Source: a virus (lineage: Duplodnaviria; Heunggongvirae; Uroviricota; Caudoviricetes). From it: DNA of 44,150 nt. The translations under genes were made by a program, and so were the position numbers. The stretch lies in the IMG/VR virus record IMGVR_UViG_3300045988_004957; one strand, given 5' to 3'. A model generated the notes under the pieces. The model ran no database searches, was not told where the DNA came from, and saw nothing but the letters and a program-made list of their open reading frames with translations. Positions 33,029 through 44,150 of this stretch are shown piece by piece. The first letter of the stretch is position 1. The number at the start of each line of letters is the position of its first letter.

Positions 33029-33329
33029 TACCACCTCCGCGGCGTGCGATATATTCTCCGGCGACAATGCCAGAGAGACGGGAATAAATTGGCATCCAGA
33101 GAATAGCAATGATGAATCCAAGGCCCGCTATTTCGCGTTCACCTGCGATACCGAACCATTGAGCGGCGAGAGGCGCACCGAATACGGCGCACGCAAAGCC
33201 AGTGGCGAGAAAACAGAGAGCATCGACAGGGCCGGTAATAGTGGCTTTGTGTTGCCGTAAGCCTATTACCCCACCAGCTAATGCGGCAGCGAGAAGCCAC
33301 CCCGTCACTGTTTCAGTAAATTTATCCAA
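33021..33329 (-). CDS. putative holin
   Basis: 102 aa with TM helices and charged C-terminus, first gene of lysis cassette; start codon is TTG. Confidence 0.5.
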   Translation of the reverse strand: MDKFTETVTGWLLAAALAGGVIGLRQHKATITGPVDALCFLATGFACAVFGAPLAAQWFGIAGEREIAGLGFIIAILWMPIYSRLSGIVAGEYIARRGGGNE

Positions 33330-33375
33330 GATGAAGCCACCCCGTCACTGTTTCAGTAAATTTATCCAAGATGAA
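33293..33375. repeat. 40-bp tandem direct repeat (2 copies) across the holin start
   Basis: 33293..33332 identical to 33333..33372, next 3 nt also repeat. Confidence 0.9.
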
Positions 33376-37106: not shown

Positions 37107-37235
37107 ATGACAAAGTTAATAGTTCCACAGCTACGCCGCCAGAAACACGGCGCTGACTTCTTCGCACCGGTAAAGATGAACCGCGCAATGCGCCGTATGC
37201 AGGAAGCCTTAGAACGTGCGGAGAAAAAGAAATGA
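37107..37235 (+). CDS. hypothetical protein (42 aa)
   Basis: ATG 37107 with SD AAGGA; basic; stop overlaps next start. Confidence 0.35.
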   Translation: MTKLIVPQLRRQKHGADFFAPVKMNRAMRRMQEALERAEKKK

Positions 37236-39484
37236 ATATTGTTTTTGCAACGCTGCGCAACACATTCGATAAAAACCCTGTAGCGCGTGAGATGCCGCTC
37301 GAGCAGTTTGTGGAGTATGTCTGCGATACATCGAAGCGTTTATCCGTGGATCCGTCGTGGTCTAAGGAAGAGTACGACGCTGCCAAGATTAAGCAGAAAG
37401 CTATTGCGCCTGTTGGGGGTCGCCGTAAAAACGCTATCCTGGAAGACAGTGTGGTTAAGTTCGATTTTGACCATCTCAACCGTACTCAGTACCGCGACCT
37501 TACCCGCAAATTCAAGAACGCACCGTTCTTCAATATTCTGCATACAACGGCATCGCATCAGCATGTGTGTAAAAACGGTGATTACGCCTTCCGCGTTCTG
37601 GTTCCGGCTCGCACGCCGTTTAACTCTAACGACGCGTGGATGGTCCAACGGGCTATTTGTGCAGAGTTAGAAATAGATGAAGCCTTGCGTGACCACTGCA
37701 CGGAAGACGGCAACCGCCTTATCTATCTGCCACATAGAGAGTCAAAGATAACGGTTACAGAAGGGCGTGTTATCCGTGCCGAGCGGTACATCAAGAAAGC
37801 CGAAGAGATGGGGTTGAGTAAACGTGAAGTTAAGACACTTGCCGCCGATGAGTATGGGCTTAACGCTGATATAGCGCATTTCTGCGAAGCCGAGCTTGGC
37901 CTTGACGCTTTATCTTCCGGGCGCGGGTACGAAGTCCCATGCCCTAACGAACATCTGCATACAGGCAAAGGCTCCACAAGCATCATGCTTGATGGTAAAG
38001 AAGTGCGCTTTGTGTGCCAGCATACAAACAACGGCGCTTGCACCGAGCTTAACCGCCGACAGCATTTGGCCCTGCGTATGTGCGGCCTGCCAGACGAGCT
38101 TAACGTAGACAAGCAACCTATCAGTATTAACAGCATTCGTGCGGCTCTGCCTGATTTACCGGATGAAGAGATTGAAGAACTGCACCGCACAGAGAACGAG
38201 GAGCCTGTAACTTGCACGCTGGAAGACCTTGAAGAAGAGGACGAGTTACCAGAACCGGTAAAGGCTGATTTCGTCGTTGAGGGGTACATGCCGTCGGATT
38301 GTATCTGGGATATTGTCGGGGAATCCGGCACGTACAAATCATTCTATACGCTGGGGATGATGTACCTGAGCGCCGCCGGGTACCGGTTTGCGGGGGCTGA
38401 CACCCAACGTTGCCACCATTTCTATATTGACGGCGAGGGTGGTGCAGCTACACGAACACGTATTGATGCACTCGCGGCTAAATATGGCGAGGAAGGTAAA
38501 GATTATGTACATGTCATCGATATGGGCGAAATACTCGCTACGCATGGTGATAAAAAAATTCCAGCTCTAATCCACAGGATGCGCGAAACCGCAGGGGATG
38601 AACCTATTGGCATGGTTGCCTTCGACACCCTTAACCAGACGCTGGCCCTGACGATTGATAAGTTCGACGAGAACAGTTCATCAACAGCAATCGGCATGGG
38701 TAAAGTTATCGCCATCCTGAAAGAAGTACGCGATGCAACTAAAGCCGCAGTAGGCGTTGTCCACCATACGCCGAAGGGTGGAAAGAAAGCACGCGGCAGT
38801 GGGGCGCTGTATGCGGGTGTTGACGTGGAACTGACAATCGAACGTGCAACCGACCGTCAGATAAACGTATATCACTCGAAATTCAAGCACGGTCCGCAAC
38901 AGAAGACGGTTGGCATGGTACTGGAGTCTGTACAGTTCCGTGAAGCACCGCCGCCGAAAGAGTACCGCGCGGTTGAGTTCCTCGGTAGCACAGAGGAATA
39001 CGGCACAATAGTAAACCTCGACCTGCCTGAGCCGCACAAGGCGCTTGTATTGATGCCGTGGGGCTTCGAGCCATTCAAGACCGACGAGGAGAAAGAGAGG
39101 GAAGAAGGGTTAACTAACGAAGGTAAACAAAATGTACGTAAAACCATAGAGAACGCCGTCAACAGTTCCGAGGCCACGATACTCGCGGCGTTTGAACTGG
39201 CGGAGGGGACCTACAACGGCAACGAGGGCATCACGGTATCCGCAGCGAATAAGCTCGCGCAGTCTGACCCCAACGCAAAGGCGTTTAACTCCAAAGAAGC
39301 CATAGAACGCGGGAAGATTAAGAAAATGGTTGAGGCTGGGTATCTTGTTCCGGGTACTGACGAAAACAATCAGATAATCCCAGGCCGTTACAGACTGAAC
39401 ACCATGATAACAGATAACAAGATTCCGAAGACAATATACGAACCGAATGAAATGCTGACAGTGACCGAGGAGGATTTGGAATGA
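37232..39484 (+). CDS. DNA primase / helicase
   Basis: 750 aa: Cys/His cluster CPNEHLH...C, Walker A-like GESGTYKS and Walker B VAFD in a RecA-like C-terminal half. Confidence 0.65.
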   Translation: MNIVFATLRNTFDKNPVAREMPLEQFVEYVCDTSKRLSVDPSWSKEEYDAAKIKQKAIAPVGGRRKNAILEDSVVKFDFDHLNRTQYRDLTRKFKNAPFFNILHTTASHQHVCKNGDYAFRVLVPARTPFNSNDAWMVQRAICAELEIDEALRDHCTEDGNRLIYLPHRESKITVTEGRVIRAERYIKKAEEMGLSKREVKTLAADEYGLNADIAHFCEAELGLDALSSGRGYEVPCPNEHLHTGKGSTSIMLDGKEVRFVCQHTNNGACTELNRRQHLALRMCGLPDELNVDKQPISINSIRAALPDLPDEEIEELHRTENEEPVTCTLEDLEEEDELPEPVKADFVVEGYMPSDCIWDIVGESGTYKSFYTLGMMYLSAAGYRFAGADTQRCHHFYIDGEGGAATRTRIDALAAKYGEEGKDYVHVIDMGEILATHGDKKIPALIHRMRETAGDEPIGMVAFDTLNQTLALTIDKFDENSSSTAIGMGKVIAILKEVRDATKAAVGVVHHTPKGGKKARGSGALYAGVDVELTIERATDRQINVYHSKFKHGPQQKTVGMVLESVQFREAPPPKEYRAVEFLGSTEEYGTIVNLDLPEPHKALVLMPWGFEPFKTDEEKEREEGLTNEGKQNVRKTIENAVNSSEATILAAFELAEGTYNGNEGITVSAANKLAQSDPNAKAFNSKEAIERGKIKKMVEAGYLVPGTDENNQIIPGRYRLNTMITDNKIPKTIYEPNEMLTVTEEDLE

Positions 39485-39795: not shown

Positions 39796-39800
39796 AAAGA

Positions 39801-39820
39801 AAGGGGCTTTAAGCCCCTTC
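39801..39820. terminator. bidirectional hairpin terminator
   Basis: AAGGGGCTT-T-AAGCCCCTT between convergent genes; overlaps 3' end of XRE gene. Confidence 0.6.
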
Positions 39821-40024
39821 ACCTAACGCCAGCCACTTGGCGTCTACTTCCAGAACTTCCGCCAGTTTGAACAGCGTTGCCGGGCGGACGTCCTGAGTTA
39901 CTCCAAGTGCCAGTTGGTTAATCGCGCCCTGGGAAACGCCGGTCAGGGCCGCCAAACGGCGCTGGGAGATGCCGAGTTCTTTACGGCGTTGTTCTACACG
40001 GATACCTAGTTCAGATGGTTGCAT
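39809..40024 (-). CDS. XRE-family HTH transcriptional regulator
   Basis: HTH signature LGISQRRLAALTGVSQGAINQLALG; SD AAGGAG; divergent from replication operon. Confidence 0.7.
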   Translation of the reverse strand: MQPSELGIRVEQRRKELGISQRRLAALTGVSQGAINQLALGVTQDVRPATLFKLAEVLEVDAKWLALGEGA

Positions 40025-40044
40025 GTCAATTACTCCTTAGTCAG

Positions 40045-40117
40045 TTGATATGTGAATAGTACCATATTAATTATTTTAGAAAAGCCCATTGACATGTGAA
40101 TAGTTCGCTATTATAGT
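40045..40117 (+). promoter_or_regulatory. two tandem promoters with dyad operators (sites 5 and 6)
   Basis: TTGATA-17 bp-TAATTA (weak -10) and TTGACA-17 bp-TATAGT; dyads at 40055..40068 and 40099..40112. Confidence 0.55.
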
Positions 40118-40145
40118 TAGCCCATACCAAACGAGAGGGGCGGAT

Positions 40146-40373
40146 ATGAACACAATAACGGGAGCCATAGCTAAAGGTTTTCTAGCAATTTTCGGAGAAT
40201 CGCAGGAAGTGTGCACAAAACATAAATTTGTACTTTCTTGCGTAGTCGGGGACGAGTTTGATGGGTTCGATAAACTTGTTGTCTGCGACCATTGCGGGCA
40301 AGAAGCTATTCAACACCCAAACGGTAAATTTGAATTAATAGACGATAGCCTTACAGAAGGCGACGGCGAGTAA
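40146..40373 (+). CDS. hypothetical protein (CxxC-containing)
   Basis: 75 aa, first gene after switch promoters; CDHCG motif; SD GAGAGGGG. Confidence 0.45.
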   Translation: MNTITGAIAKGFLAIFGESQEVCTKHKFVLSCVVGDEFDGFDKLVVCDHCGQEAIQHPNGKFELIDDSLTEGDGE

Positions 40374-40397
40374 CCCAAATAAACAGGAGAATAAATA

Positions 40398-40916
40398 ATG
40401 TTAGAGAAATTCTTAGTATTACTGGAACGTTTCGTAGTTGCGCATGAACTGATTGCTGCGAACAGTGCACGCCGTACTGAACTGCCGAAGGCTATCACGG
40501 CGCCATATGGTAAAGACGTCGACAGTGGTGTCGCAGAAACTGCAACAATCACGCCTACTGTTGTAAAAGAAGAAACAAAAGAAATCCCGGTCGAGGGTGA
40601 AGACGTAGTTGACACTAAACCGGCAGAAGAAGAGAAGCCGAAACGCAAGCCGCGTAAAGCTAAAGTAGAGGAACCTGCGCCAGAACCGGAAGAAGAGAAA
40701 GAAGAAGTCGATTACAAGTCTCTGCGTGACCAGATTCAGGCCATCGACGATGCAATTAATGAAGGTCCTAGCGATGCCGCGTGCGATGATTCTGATGAAC
40801 TGCTGGAAGAGTTCACAGGTAAGAAGATGAAGATTGCCGCGATTAAAGACGAAGACCTGGTTGAGTACCTGGAACGCCTGACAGCAATCAAGAACAAGTA
40901 TTTCGAAGAAGAATAA
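40398..40916 (+). CDS. acidic hypothetical protein
   Basis: 172 aa with Glu/Asp-rich C-terminal half and a basic KPKRKPRKAK patch; strong SD. Confidence 0.5.
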   Translation: MLEKFLVLLERFVVAHELIAANSARRTELPKAITAPYGKDVDSGVAETATITPTVVKEETKEIPVEGEDVVDTKPAEEEKPKRKPRKAKVEEPAPEPEEEKEEVDYKSLRDQIQAIDDAINEGPSDAACDDSDELLEEFTGKKMKIAAIKDEDLVEYLERLTAIKNKYFEEE

Positions 40917-40923
40917 CTATCTC

Positions 40924-40942
40924 GCGGCCTTCGGGCCGCTTT
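40924..40942 (+). terminator. intra-operon hairpin attenuator
   Basis: GCGGCC-TTCG-GGCCGC followed by TTTAACT. Confidence 0.45.
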
Positions 40943-40959
40943 AACTGAGGGTCGGAATT

Positions 40960-41232
40960 ATGATTTACCAACTCTACCGAGCCGTCGACAGGCGGGATAA
41001 CACAGAGGCGCTATGGCTATTGCGTGCTCCGTCCGGTGCGCACCAGATGGAAGAGATGGCGTACTTAGGAAAAGTACCACGGCCTAAAGATATAGGCCGT
41101 CACGTGTCACAGATTAAGCGCACAACTTTCGCCAAGCCTGACTTTTATGTCTTCGAGTCTATGTATGGGTGGGCCATGCACTGCGACCATAAGACACGAC
41201 ATTTAATTGACCAGTGGGAGAACAGGGTATGA
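40960..41232 (+). CDS. hypothetical protein
   Basis: 90 aa ORF, SD GAGGG. Confidence 0.45.
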   Translation: MIYQLYRAVDRRDNTEALWLLRAPSGAHQMEEMAYLGKVPRPKDIGRHVSQIKRTTFAKPDFYVFESMYGWAMHCDHKTRHLIDQWENRV

Positions 41233-41486
41233 ATTGGGTTAGCGTAAACGAAGCACTACCAGAGTCAAAAGATGATTCTGTTTTAGTTTGCTCAGTAGAC
41301 GGAAGTAAATGCGACGATAATGGGTTCCCGGAAGGCGGAATTGATTTTGTGCATATACAGGACTATTTCGACGACATTACTGCTGGGCTGGATGAAAACG
41401 GAAATCAGTTATATACGAAACGGTATATCGAGATGGGTATAACACACTGGATGTATTTACCAGAACTACCGGAGGAGGCTAAATAA
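41229..41486 (+). CDS. DUF551-like protein
   Basis: C-terminal ITHWMYLPELP motif; start taken at ATG 41229 (ATGA coupling). Confidence 0.45.
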   Translation: MNWVSVNEALPESKDDSVLVCSVDGSKCDDNGFPEGGIDFVHIQDYFDDITAGLDENGNQLYTKRYIEMGITHWMYLPELPEEAK

Positions 41487-42727
41487 TGATTCTAAAAGAA
41501 CGAGGCGGCAATAATGATGTACACGCCTTACTGTCGCCGTCAGGCGCTAAAAAGTGGCTGAGTTGTGCCGCATCGTTGGCCTGTGAAAAAGATATTCCTA
41601 ATACGTCGGGTAAAGCCGCGGTATTAGGCACAGCAATGCACACCATAGCAGAGATGCACCTTAACCAGTACATCAAAGGCACTGCGTTGCCGTTAGAGCG
41701 TGAAGTTGGAGCTTACGTGCTGGATGAAGGCAAAGGCCAGATTAAGGCACTAATCAGTCCGATGAAAGGCGCGGTACTGATTACGGCTGACATGATTGAG
41801 CAGGTGCGTAAGTACACCGACTACTGCAAAGCGCTTATCGACGTAGCGACTTACGCCAAGCTGGAAATGCGTGTCAATCTTACTGAGGTATTGCATCCGG
41901 GGTATGAAGGCGTTGAGACGTTCGGAACCGCTGACCTCGTTGCTGTCCAGGAACTGGCAAACACCGACGAGCACATGCTCATTATCGGCGACCTGAAAAC
42001 CGGGCGGCATCGCGTCGAAGCGAAAGAAAACAAGCAGCTTATGCTTTACGCTCTCGGTGTTTATCGCCGACTCAAGAGACGTTATAACATAACAGTTGTT
42101 CGTCTGGTAATCTTCCAGCCGTACACTGGCGGCGCGTCGGAGTGGGACATCTCGGTTGAAGGTATGGAGCTGTTCGCTAAGTTCGCACAGAAACGCGCAC
42201 TGTTAGCGCTTGATGCTTATCACCGTGGCAAGAAGAACCTGAAAGCGTCAGACTTCAAGCCGTCGGTTGATGGTTGTCAGTGGTGCCGGTTCTCTGAACA
42301 GTGCGTCGCGCGTACAAAGACGGTTAACTCTGTGCTGGCGGAAGAACTGGAGGACGACTTTGCCCTGGAACTTACGCCGGAGCAACTCGTAGCTGAGTAT
42401 GAGAAGTTGCCGTTGTTGCGCCAGCACATCGACAAGGTTGAGAAAGCGATGGCTGCCGCGTTGCATTCCGGTAAGAAAGTGCCGGGGTACAAGCTGGTTG
42501 AAGGCCGCCCGGGTAATCGTGCGTGGAAAGATGCAGAGAAAGTGGCTGGCAAGTATGGCATAGCGCTAATGAAGCAAGTGCTCATGACGCCAACCGAAGC
42601 GGTTAAAGTTGTGCCTGAAGATGAACTGAAAGACTTCATTACACGTAAGCCAGGCGCACCATGTGTCGCAACGGCAGATGACAAACGTCCTGAGTGGAAT
42701 CAGGTTACAGAGGAGGATTTAGAATGA
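41486..42727 (+). CDS. PD-(D/E)XK nuclease, Cas4/RecB-like
   Basis: Core D ... IGDLKTG ... QLMLYALG plus C-terminal Cys cluster CQWCRFSEQC typical of Cas4-like Fe-S exonucleases. Confidence 0.55.
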   Translation: MILKERGGNNDVHALLSPSGAKKWLSCAASLACEKDIPNTSGKAAVLGTAMHTIAEMHLNQYIKGTALPLEREVGAYVLDEGKGQIKALISPMKGAVLITADMIEQVRKYTDYCKALIDVATYAKLEMRVNLTEVLHPGYEGVETFGTADLVAVQELANTDEHMLIIGDLKTGRHRVEAKENKQLMLYALGVYRRLKRRYNITVVRLVIFQPYTGGASEWDISVEGMELFAKFAQKRALLALDAYHRGKKNLKASDFKPSVDGCQWCRFSEQCVARTKTVNSVLAEELEDDFALELTPEQLVAEYEKLPLLRQHIDKVEKAMAAALHSGKKVPGYKLVEGRPGNRAWKDAEKVAGKYGIALMKQVLMTPTEAVKVVPEDELKDFITRKPGAPCVATADDKRPEWNQVTEEDLE

Positions 42728-42927
42728 TTCAAGTAAATGAAATGCCGACTGATAAAGATTTTTTGATGGTATGGCGCTGGGATGGGTATCTACACTCGGA
42801 ATCGTTCACGTTCTTGAACGGTACCATGATGCGATACGACCCTGTAGAGGATGAGTTCGAACCGGCCGATATGCTTAATTTCGAGAACATAATCCCTATT
42901 GCAAAATTTTATTTGACACCTGAATAG
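42724..42927 (+). CDS. hypothetical protein
   Basis: ATG 42724 overlapping nuclease stop (ATGA); 67 aa. Confidence 0.45.
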   Translation: MIQVNEMPTDKDFLMVWRWDGYLHSESFTFLNGTMMRYDPVEDEFEPADMLNFENIIPIAKFYLTPE

Positions 42928-42941
42928 TTAGCTATTATAGT
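42913..42941 (+). promoter_or_regulatory. sigma70-like promoter with embedded dyad (site 7)
   Basis: TTGACA-17 bp-TATAGT; dyad 42923..42936 in spacer; overlaps 3' end of upstream ORF. Confidence 0.55.
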
Positions 42942-43000: not shown

Positions 43001-43627
43001 ATGGGTATTAAACTGAATCTGCGTAAAGTAAACACTGCTTGGGTTAACGTATTTGAACGTGAAAAAGACCGTGAAAACGATGATGGCTCAATCACTAAAG
43101 GCCAGTACAGCGCGACTATCATCCTGCCGTCTGACCATGCTCAAATCGATGCACTCTACGACACCGTTTACGCTGTAGTTGAAGAAGCGTTAGGCGCAGC
43201 CGCTGCCGAGAAATGGATGAAGTCCAACTACGGTGAAGGTAAGCACATGGATAAATGCGCGATTAAAGACATTGCCGAGCGCGACAATCCGTTTGAAGAC
43301 TTCCCGGAAGGCTTCTACTTCAAAGCGAAGGCACAGAAACAGCCGCTGATTGTAACCTCTAAAAAAGGTGAGACTCAGGTAGAGCAGGACTTCAACGTAG
43401 ACGGCGAACAGATTGAAGGTGAACAGGTTTACAGCGGATGCTTAGCTAACGTAAGCGTTGAAATCTGGTTCAGCCAGAAATACAAAGTCCTCGGCGTTAA
43501 CCTGCTGGCGATTAAATACGTTGGCGAAGGCAAAGCGTTCGGCGGTTCTAAAGTCGCCGCGAGCGTCAATGACCTGGAAGATGACGAAGAAGATGAAGCA
43601 CCGCGCCGTGAACGTCGTCGCCGCTAA
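43001..43627 (+). CDS. putative ssDNA-binding protein (DUF2815-like)
   Basis: 208 aa with acidic Arg-rich tail; sits between Cas4-like nuclease and DNA polymerase. Confidence 0.45.
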   Translation: MGIKLNLRKVNTAWVNVFEREKDRENDDGSITKGQYSATIILPSDHAQIDALYDTVYAVVEEALGAAAAEKWMKSNYGEGKHMDKCAIKDIAERDNPFEDFPEGFYFKAKAQKQPLIVTSKKGETQVEQDFNVDGEQIEGEQVYSGCLANVSVEIWFSQKYKVLGVNLLAIKYVGEGKAFGGSKVAASVNDLEDDEEDEAPRRERRRR

Positions 43628-43647: not shown

Positions 43648-43670
43648 AAGGCCCTTCATTGGGCCTTTTT
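43648..43670 (+). terminator. rho-independent terminator / attenuator
   Basis: AAGGCCC-TTCATT-GGGCCTT followed by TTTTTAC. Confidence 0.6.
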
Positions 43671-43687: not shown

Positions 43688-44150
43688 ATGAGTTACCTGT
43701 TCTTAGACTTTGAAACATTCTCAGAAGCCGATTTGAAGAAAGTCGGTTCTTACGCTTACGCCGAACACCCGTCAACCGAAGTGCTTATCTGTACATATGC
43801 TTTTGACGACGAACCTGTGCGGGTATGGGATTGCACCGACGGCAGCGACATGCCGGGGGATTTACACCGCGCACTGCGCCGCCTTGTTAAGCCCAACAGC
43901 CGCATCAAGATGGTGTGGCACAACGGTGGACTTTTCGATCGCCTAATCATGAAACACTGCTGGGACTTTGATATTCCGGTAAGTAACACCATTGATACTA
44001 TGATTTGGGCGTTCCGTCACGCGCTGCCGGGTTCTCTTGATGCGCTGTGCGAAGTGCTGGGCGTGTCTGCAGACAACGCGAAAGATAAACGCGGCAAGGC
44101 TCTGATTAAGCGTTTCTCTAAACCGACGCCGAAGAACTACAAAATCCGCC
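43688..44150 (+). CDS. DNA polymerase family A, N-terminal 3'-5' exonuclease domain (3' end outside window)
   Basis: ATG 43688; Exo I-like motif LFLDFETFS; frame still open at window end. Confidence 0.8.
   Translation, partial: MSYLFLDFETFSEADLKKVGSYAYAEHPSTEVLICTYAFDDEPVRVWDCTDGSDMPGDLHRALRRLVKPNSRIKMVWHNGGLFDRLIMKHCWDFDIPVSNTIDTMIWAFRHALPGSLDALCEVLGVSADNAKDKRGKALIKRFSKPTPKNYKIR

Follow-up and report, generated by a model that had tools for sequence, protein, structure and literature searches.

The 172-amino acid (aa) open reading frame (ORF) at 40398–40916 (+ strand) of the viral genome IMGVR_UViG_3300045988_004957—analyzed here as a single stretch of 44,150 nucleotides (nt), hereafter the window—is a catalogued phage gene of the phrog_3127 family, and genome comparisons indicate that it is a core gene of Guernseyvirinae-type siphophages, with a fixed synteny that includes Eiauvirus and Dhillonvirus. 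We lean toward, without calling it probable, an interpretation of its product as a non-enzymatic accessory or adaptor that serves phage DNA replication or recombination in stoichiometric amounts. We do so because of the core status and fixed synteny of the gene, the slow evolution of its N-terminal helix and C-terminal domain, expression signals like those of the single-stranded DNA-binding protein (SSB) gene, and a linker of a nucleic-acid-binding type. The hairpin that follows its stop codon is of a common intra-operon kind, and a leaky intrinsic terminator and/or 3′ stabilizer appears to fit it best; the layout of gene plus hairpin is ordinary for phages.

Distribution and gene order

The window represents a Kagunavirus (Guernseyvirinae) genome. 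Its DNA polymerase A (PolA) gene starts at 43689 and resumes at 1–1713, with both window ends lying inside the gene; because the polymerase gene spans these ends, the window can be read as a circularly permuted complete genome of ~44 kb. The region surrounding the 172-aa ORF (39800–41500) is 97–99% identical to Escherichia siphophages including vB_EcoS-22664BS2, SHAK7858, and phiEc4, and 88–95% identical to many other phages; the 466 phage records that match it in all are mainly Salmonella Jerseyvirus and E. coli Kagunavirus. At the protein level, tblastn recovers a homolog in 486 phage records, a distribution that identifies the ORF as genuinely coding. The helicase-primase is recovered in 651 records, the surplus being mostly Dhillonvirus. 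The respective counts for the two proteins are 355 and 358 among Salmonella phages, 11 and 11 for "Kagunavirus," and 5 and 5 among Serratia phages.

The gene order is also shared. Helicase-primase/helix-turn-helix (HTH) genes border an ORF172-like gene, which is followed by zero to four small ORFs, a DUF2800 exonuclease, an Enc34-type SSB, and PolA, in Serratia phage Otaku, Salmonella phage vB_STM-ZS, Klebsiella phage 37P2, Edwardsiella phage eiAU (in which gp46 is the family member), Dhillonvirus Bas83, and two metagenomic contigs. Wherever this neighborhood was examined, the ORF172-like gene came first or second in its operon, adjoining divergent regulator or helicase-primase genes. Recognition in Dhillonvirus Haito_Bas83 (PQ850604.1) depends on the choice of strand: the annotated coding sequence (CDS), Bas83_0052, lies on the wrong strand and yields a product rich in Phe, Arg, and Cys, while the opposite strand (L058 4803–5324, −) encodes a 173-aa homolog followed by a homolog of ORF90, the next gene in the window. 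Universal presence as a core gene, in a fixed gene order, is what a module component would show; an accessory counter-defense gene would be distributed otherwise. The first-pass annotation, made from the sequence of the window, had offered host takeover as one possible role; the universal core status of the gene and its attachment to a single replication module lend this no support, and we consider host-takeover roles, taken together, to be unlikely.

Within the window the rightward (+) order is ORF75 (40146–40373; 75 aa; phrog_32657), which is the first small ORF of the operon, then the 172-aa ORF and its hairpin, ORF90 (40960–41232; phrog_4965), a DUF551 ORF, a DUF2800/PD-(D/E)XK exonuclease (41486–42727; Pfam and PHROG matches), a small ORF, an Enc34/gp2.5-type ssDNA-binding and annealing protein (the SSB; 43001–43627), and PolA. 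A sigma-70-type promoter, TTGACA-17-TATAGT (40089–40117, +; 11 of 12 consensus matches), is predicted to drive this operon, and is arranged back to back with that of a 71-aa Cro/CI-like HTH regulator gene (39809–40024, −; Pfam HTH_3, E 3.9e-13; PHROG transcriptional repressor families). The spacer of the rightward promoter contains a palindrome, AATAG-TTCG-CTATT (40099–40112), which recurs as AATAG-N4-CTATT at 42923–42936 in the spacer of a second strong rightward promoter (42913–42941), the SSB gene's own. These palindromes are probably operators of the divergent Cro/CI-like protein, and since the palindrome is common to both rightward promoters, both are probably under repressor control. The promoter/operator block is itself present a second time, as a 25-nt direct repeat at 40045–40069, with a half-site of the palindrome near 40055. 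From this layout of promoter and repressor it is reasonable to infer that the operon is early, whereas the database name that the family inherited from Salmonella phage MB78 says "late."

Family, architecture, and charge

The phrog_3127 hidden Markov model matches the protein over its full length (E 7.5e-67; residues 1–172 on profile positions 1–177 of 178), and all 23 members of our family alignment match it as well. The family is narrow, since only 36 clusters emerged when 1.8 billion representative proteins were searched exhaustively with HMMER. A word-seeded search recovered 2,350 close relatives, all of them unnamed or labeled "hypothetical," "13.88 kDa late protein," or "TonB" (JGI). The second of these names derives from UniProt Q9T1Z8, a 123-aa entry from phage MB78, which is also among the hits of a Foldseek search against BFVD that retrieved only family members (75% identity, E 4.2e-11). 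Neither inherited name, "13.88 kDa late protein" or "TonB," is informative, and in at least one GenBank record it is the wrong strand that is annotated.

Other comparisons returned little. Pfam, NCBIfam, and PADLOC scans found nothing for the 172-aa ORF, and Pfam searches with the 23 family members gave only scattered low-complexity noise. Sequence and profile searches of the PDB produced, at best, profile E values of 0.1–0.18 to unrelated proteins, with the matches falling in the low-complexity linker; Foldseek against the PDB reached a best E of 0.89, to generic three-helix bundles only.

The ORF runs from an ATG at 40398 to a TAA at 40914–40916, preceded by a Shine-Dalgarno sequence, AGGAG (40385–40389, +), 8 nt before the start codon. 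In its last 65 nt, conservation at codon position 3 is 0.855, against 0.956 and 0.960 at positions 1 and 2. The first-pass annotation described a highly acidic 172-aa product with a Glu/Asp-rich C-terminal half and a short basic patch, and most of this description holds: the C-terminal half (residues 87–172) contains 28 Asp and Glu against 12 Lys and Arg, and the basic patch is K80–K89, KPKRKPRKAK (40635–40664, +). "Highly acidic" is only partly apt. With 31 Glu, 14 Asp, 19 Lys, and 7 Arg, the protein has a net charge of −19, a pI of 4.54, and the highest Asp+Glu fraction (26%) of the 68 non-overlapping ORFs in the window; but because Lys and Arg make up another 15%, its rank by net charge per residue (−0.11) is only fifth, and the pI of a dozen ORFs is lower. 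The term polyampholyte suits it better than uniformly acidic.

Structure prediction with AlphaFold2 (AF2) was uninformative from a shallow alignment (predicted local distance difference test, pLDDT, 46), while a deeper alignment yielded a confident C-terminal domain. Three segments can be distinguished. The first is an N-terminal hydrophobic helix, residues 1–25 (40398–40472, +; MLEKFLVLLERFVVAHELIAANSAR), modeled as helical over residues 2–25 with a pLDDT of ~78. Among the 23 aligned sequences this helix, MLEKFLVLLERFVVAHELIAANS, is almost constant down to 29% overall identity: R11, A15, E17, and A20 are invariant, and M1, L8, E10, F12, V13, and H16 are at least 90% conserved. The second is a linker of ~80 aa, residues 26–105 (40473–40712, +), which is predicted to be disordered (block-mean pLDDT 41–59, no secondary structure, alignment gaps); it is rich in insertions and deletions, and alternates acidic blocks with blocks rich in Lys, Arg, and Pro. 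The basic patch lies within it and takes the form KPKRGRKP, KPKRGRKK, or PAKSKKAPAKGK in relatives: Serratia phage Otaku has two copies of KPKRGRKP, eiAU has KPKRGRKK, and Dhillonvirus Bas83 repeats PAKSKKAPAKGK three times. The third segment is acidic and consists of a three-helix domain, residues 106–172 (40713–40913, +), with helices at 106–122, 126–140, and 151–170 (block-mean pLDDT 76–92), the motif LR..I...A.AI..GDSD...D.FDDLLE.Y, and a net charge of −10 over 66 aa. This domain is duplicated in three relatives (P0134, P0150, and P0154). Two further sequences, P0143 and P0156, join the N-terminal helix to other sequence; these may be metagenomic chimeras and were set aside.

DNA mimicry and host-nuclease inhibition

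DNA mimicry, which the first-pass annotation had raised on the strength of the acidic composition, is not borne out. Neither Pfam, NCBIfam, PADLOC, the PDB, nor Foldseek gives a match to any mimic or inhibitor, and the gene is core, not patchy. The structure prediction proposed there as a check gives a confident acidic domain of ~66 aa beside ~80 disordered residues with a conserved basic motif, and no match to the fold of a mimic. An anti-restriction mimic of the Ocr/ArdA type would account for the highest Asp+Glu fraction in the genome and for an operon with an early-type promoter; nonetheless, it is barely credible. For Kagunavirus isolates a published study reports "a high sensitivity to RM systems" (restriction–modification systems; PMC11990801), and four phages of that collection, Bas70, Bas72, Bas73, and Bas75, carry the 172-aa region or protein. 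The gene is universal in the subfamily, homology is absent in Pfam, PADLOC, and the PDB, and a protein with a pI of 4.54, about half of it disordered and with a basic patch, makes a poor candidate. We found no compact fold in which negative charge is very dense throughout the protein, and other ORFs of the genome are more acidic.

Inhibition of a host nuclease, or another form of host takeover, deserves more consideration. Lambda gam is clustered with bet and exo, and there is a link between Old and the inhibition of RecBCD by lambda Gam, which offers a lead and not a test. By analogy, the product could act as a Gam-like RecBCD decoy, shielding linear phage DNA and recombination by the exonuclease and annealase, with the acidic C-terminal domain imitating DNA and the basic patch or N-terminal helix acting as a tether. 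The charge of the C-terminal domain is compatible with such a role, as is the position of the gene at the head of an operon, upstream of exonuclease and annealase genes, much as gam lies with bet and exo. The strong promoter and good codon index would suggest abundance, and conservation of the gene across hosts would also follow if its host target were conserved. The sensitivity of Kagunavirus isolates to Old is variable (PMC11990801), which may be taken as a lead only; it can equally be turned against the proposal, as sensitivity differs among isolates while the gene is core. Further, Pfam, PDB, and Foldseek searches detect no homology to Gam, gp5.9, or Abc2, and there is no similarity of sequence or fold to Ocr, ArdA, or any PDB entry. 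Compact DNA mimics do not typically have a conserved basic motif or an 80-aa disordered linker, and the net charge density of −0.11 per residue is moderate. Weighing both sides, we judge inhibition of this kind to be decidedly unlikely, and return to an accessory or adaptor role in replication or recombination as the interpretation that we favor.

The hairpin and its conservation

The hairpin reported by the first-pass annotation, GCGGCC-UUCG-GGCCGC, is present at 40924–40939 (+), 7 nt past the TAA stop. It comprises six G-C pairs and a cUUCGg tetraloop, with a folding energy of −12.1 kcal/mol alone and −13.5 kcal/mol in context, and the pattern GCGGCC-N4-GGCCGC occurs only once in the window, against a chance expectation of 0.24 with one mismatch allowed. 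Its stem has the form expected of an intrinsic terminator (at least 5 GC-rich base pairs, a loop of 3–8 nt, on the transcribed strand, past a stop codon). The U-tract attributed to it is less secure: the sequence 3′ of the stem, UUUAACUG, includes a short run of three consecutive U followed by AACUG (the tail UUUAAC occupies 40940–40945, +), and its 4 T in 8 fall below our scan threshold of at least 5 T in 8. The Shine-Dalgarno sequence of ORF90, GAGGG (40947–40951, +), lies 7 nt past the hairpin.

This element is strongly conserved among close relatives. In the Kagunavirus/Jerseyvirus set, GCGGCC-N4-GGCCGC is found at 48 of 55 loci, with no variation in the stem, a UUCG loop in 44 of the 48, and a tail of the TTTAAC type in 45 of them. 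Column conservation in the same set is 0.994 for the stem-loop, above the 0.855 of codon position 3 and the 0.78 of the spacer between stop codon and stem. The exact 22-mer of this hairpin site is found in 38 IMG/VR contigs, one copy in each, all from this phage group. A mobile or repeated element was considered and rejected, as the 22-mer appears once per genome and is confined to one phage group.

Seven other lineages have, at the orthologous position, GC-rich hairpins that are not homologous to that of the window, with energies of −13 to −22 kcal/mol. MAFFT misregistered these structures, so each was folded separately. Loci L017 and L020 have GGUGCCCUC-GCUAU-UGAGGGCACC (with arms also readable as GGUGCCCUC and GAGGGCACC) and a tail of AAAC; L051 has GCCCCGG-UGCG-CCGGGGC with the tail UUCCC. 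Serratia phage Otaku has GCCCCGG-UACG-CCGGGGC with the tail UUUUUAUA, and Klebsiella phage 37P2 has GCCCCGG-CGCG-CCGGGGC with the tail UUUUAACC. The hairpin of eiAU is UGGCCCGG-UUAUCG-CCGGGCCA with the tail CUUUUUAG, that of Bas83 is GGCCCGC-UAAUCU-GCGGGCC with the tail UAUUUUUAG, and that of L061 is GGCCCCGG-UUCG-CCGGGGCU with the tail UUUACC, in which the U closing the stem opens a run of four U. Four to five U follow the hairpin in five of the seven (Otaku, 37P2, eiAU, Bas83, and L061, with Bas83 counted on UAUUUUU). Because the stem sequence is replaced wholesale while a stable hairpin and, usually, a U-run are kept, the element would seem to have an RNA-level function on the + strand. The first-pass annotation had named it an attenuator, a role that gains from the hairpins of the seven lineages, from the contrast of 0.994 with 0.855 in conservation, and from the codon index discussed below; the weak U-tract leaves it a candidate.

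Turnover of the hairpin also bears on whether the protein regulates through it. As a nucleic-acid-binding regulator, the product might be an N-like factor or an autoregulator that uses its basic patch to bind the conserved hairpin RNA 3′ of its own gene, or else a timing factor acting on host RNA polymerase. Such a role would suit a first or second gene beside a repressor/operator region, a conserved Lys/Arg-rich motif, the unusual invariance of the hairpin sequence within Kagunavirus and Jerseyvirus, and a region in which, as far as it was examined and with no genome-wide check, no phage RNA polymerase gene was seen. The hairpin sequence, however, differs between genera and is absent from four lineages, whereas the protein motifs are retained; the basic motif is also variable (KPKRKPRKAK, KPKRGRKP, PAKSKKAPAKGK); the window contains no Rfam family; and Pfam and Foldseek show no similarity to N, Q, or anti-sigma families. 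We regard a regulator of this type as very unlikely.

Several observations weigh against the hairpin as a terminator, and against the wider interpretation to which it belongs. Our terminator scan of the window does not list the 40924–40939 hairpin, whose U-tract falls short; with just three U, termination there may be very weak or absent. The hairpin of L051 is followed by UU only and that of L017 and L020 by no U at all, and no hairpin is found in L050, L052/L054, vB_STM-ZS, or L060. It is therefore worth considering that the structure does not terminate transcription, but instead serves as a post-transcriptional barrier to 3′-to-5′ exonucleases, a translational element for the next gene, or a short conserved junction for the recombinational exchange of accessory genes. 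The short or missing U-runs here and in L017/L020 would be consistent with this, as would the lack of any terminator call by scan or curated annotation: the curated Schulenberg record places a terminator after the cro-like gene and none at this hairpin. The identical junction of hairpin and ribosome-binding site (RBS) precedes at least six different genes, in a slot of 42–1183 nt. In addition, an alternative pairing of CGGCCUUCGG with CUGAGGGUCG (40921–40955) covers the Shine-Dalgarno sequence of ORF90, and is slightly favored in silico (−15.7 versus −13.5 kcal/mol). But this masking pairing is impossible in L010 or L015, and is therefore treated as incidental; the 4–5 U of the distant lineages match canonical terminator design; and a recombination junction fails to explain independent replacement by other hairpins. 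A stabilizer and a leaky terminator are, moreover, mutually compatible and predict the same polarity. A hairpin with no terminating function thus strikes us as rather unlikely, and a leaky terminator and/or stabilizer is retained.

The hairpin also marks, on comparative evidence, the left edge of a hypervariable slot for accessory genes, in which ORF90 is the first gene in the window. Across loci L001–L061, the distance from the stop codon of the 172-aa gene to the start of the exonuclease ranges over those 42–1183 nt and includes zero to four small ORFs. The junction, hairpin-UUUAAC-UGAGGGUCGGAAUUAUG, is kept whichever gene comes next, and in some genomes its RBS part is repeated before the next inserted gene. 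In the GenBank relative H38, a Ral-like restriction-alleviation gene is annotated beside the homolog. The slot-edge hairpin may be useful for engineering small phages and in looking for anti-defense genes.

Proposed function and expression

In the mechanism that we propose, the 172-aa gene would lead a sigma-70-driven, probably repressor-controlled operon together with the DUF2800 exonuclease, the Enc34/gp2.5-type SSB-annealase, and PolA. The N-terminal helix of its product could provide for oligomerization or partner docking, and the Lys/Arg/Pro patch of the linker is of a kind that might bind nucleic acid non-specifically. The hairpin past the stop codon would serve as a leaky intrinsic terminator, an obstacle to 3′-exonucleases, or both, and the upstream mRNA segment and the 172-aa protein may thereby accumulate above the variable accessory genes. 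The SSB gene has the same arrangement, with a hairpin on its 3′ side (AAGGCCC-UUCAUU-GGGCCUU; 43648–43667, +; −13.0 kcal/mol) followed by UUUAC and a Shine-Dalgarno sequence (UUUAC, then UAGGGG); SSB is a protein that phages require stoichiometrically.

Codon usage is in line with these expectations. The fraction of E. coli-optimal codons in the 172-aa gene is 0.647, seventh of the 68 ORFs, while the SSB ranks first and a 349-aa ORF that may be a capsid gene ranks second; neighboring genes rank far lower (ORF75 52nd, the DUF551 ORF 51st, and ORF90 67th). Together, the codon index, the strong promoter, and the Shine-Dalgarno sequence would fit an abundant 172-aa protein and poorly adapted downstream genes, and it is plausible that the product is made in excess over the latter.

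To the points already raised against this interpretation, several must be added. The codon index is rough, and in the 172-aa protein it is dominated by GAA and AAA. A published RNA-seq study of phage K1B4 gives no per-gene values for K1B4_003, which is a homolog by position and length only. The inherited database name, as noted, says "late." Searches of Pfam, the PDB, and Foldseek return no homology or structural match to any replication factor, and the evidence that points to replication or recombination is that of synteny, core status, and architecture. Fitness data from CRISPRi-ART on PTXU04 were considered as a comparator and dropped, PTXU04 being unrelated (92 CDS, with a 2,198-aa polyvalent protein).

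A more specific proposal can be formulated, though we give it little credence: phrog_3127 could be an unrecognized, obligatory third partner of the widespread DUF2800 exonuclease/Enc34-type SSB-annealase/PolA module, or else a new RecBCD or host-nuclease decoy. As a third partner the protein may form a DNA-tethered hub, with the basic patch on nucleic acid and the acidic three-helix domain and N-terminal helix on partner proteins; as a decoy it may be supplied in stoichiometric amounts, its dosage set by the conserved 3′ hairpin. A core family with fixed synteny is, in any case, a reasonable target in the search for a missing replication or recombination component, and the module in question is used by several hundred sequenced phages of E. 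coli and Salmonella that are candidates for therapy.

Additional features of the genome

Other structures and repeats were observed in the window. The Rfam scan identified no RNA family anywhere within it, and no origin-like iterons were found in or near the 172-aa gene. Perfect GC-rich hairpins number 39 rows (overlapping readings included), compared with ~9 in mononucleotide shuffles, and the pattern AAGGCCC(C)-loop-(G)GGGCCTT is shared by four hairpins of the genome (4644, 17196, 24540, and 43648). A further hairpin, AAGGGGCU-UUA-AGCCCCUU (39799–39820), lies between a convergent 104-aa ORF (+) and the cro-like gene (−); a U-tract is evident on the − strand (CUUUUUAUAG) but not on the + strand, and it is here that the Schulenberg record annotates its terminator. 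A perfect 40-nt tandem repeat (GAAGCCACCCCGTCACTGTTTCAGTAAATTTATCCAAGAT) is present at 33293–33375, in 2.1 copies with a 100% match.

Two of the replication genes have features of their own. The helicase-primase (37232–39484) has an N-terminal half (residues 1–343) that is swapped between otherwise near-identical phages, and many relatives match residues 343–750 only; phiEc3, for example, is 99.5% identical over that half. Covariation of the 172-aa ORF with the type of helicase-primase N-terminus was not seen, as phiEc3 combines the same ORF with a different N-terminal half. At the C-terminus of the SSB an acidic run gives way to a basic tail (...DDEEDEAPRRERRRR), as opposed to the purely acidic tail of T7 gp2.5.

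Comparison with known systems

The closest named relative, Q9T1Z8 of phage MB78, belongs to the same family, and differs in being a 123-aa fragment known by size and a "late" name only, the latter at odds with the promoter and operon context here. Lambda Gam, T7 gp5.9, T7 Ocr, and ArdA resemble the 172-aa protein as small acidic proteins from early operons. The present protein, however, is modular and half-disordered, with a basic motif, a lower charge density, a core distribution, and carrier phages that are sensitive to restriction–modification. With AT-hook and histone H1-like segments rich in Lys, Pro, and Ala the likeness is compositional only; the canonical G-R-P core of the AT-hook was not seen in the 172-aa family, the window having KPKRKPRKAK and relatives KRGRK(P/K).

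UNCG tetraloops are common in E. coli intrinsic terminators, and intra-operon terminators and mRNA-stabilizing hairpins set differential expression in polycistronic operons. The hairpin of the window departs from such terminators in having only three U. It shares with intra-operon terminators and stabilizers a GC-rich stem and a UNCG-type tetraloop past the stop codon of a gene that is probably well expressed, followed by a U-run and the next RBS; and, like them, it is specific to the transcribed strand, with a structure that is conserved across genera.

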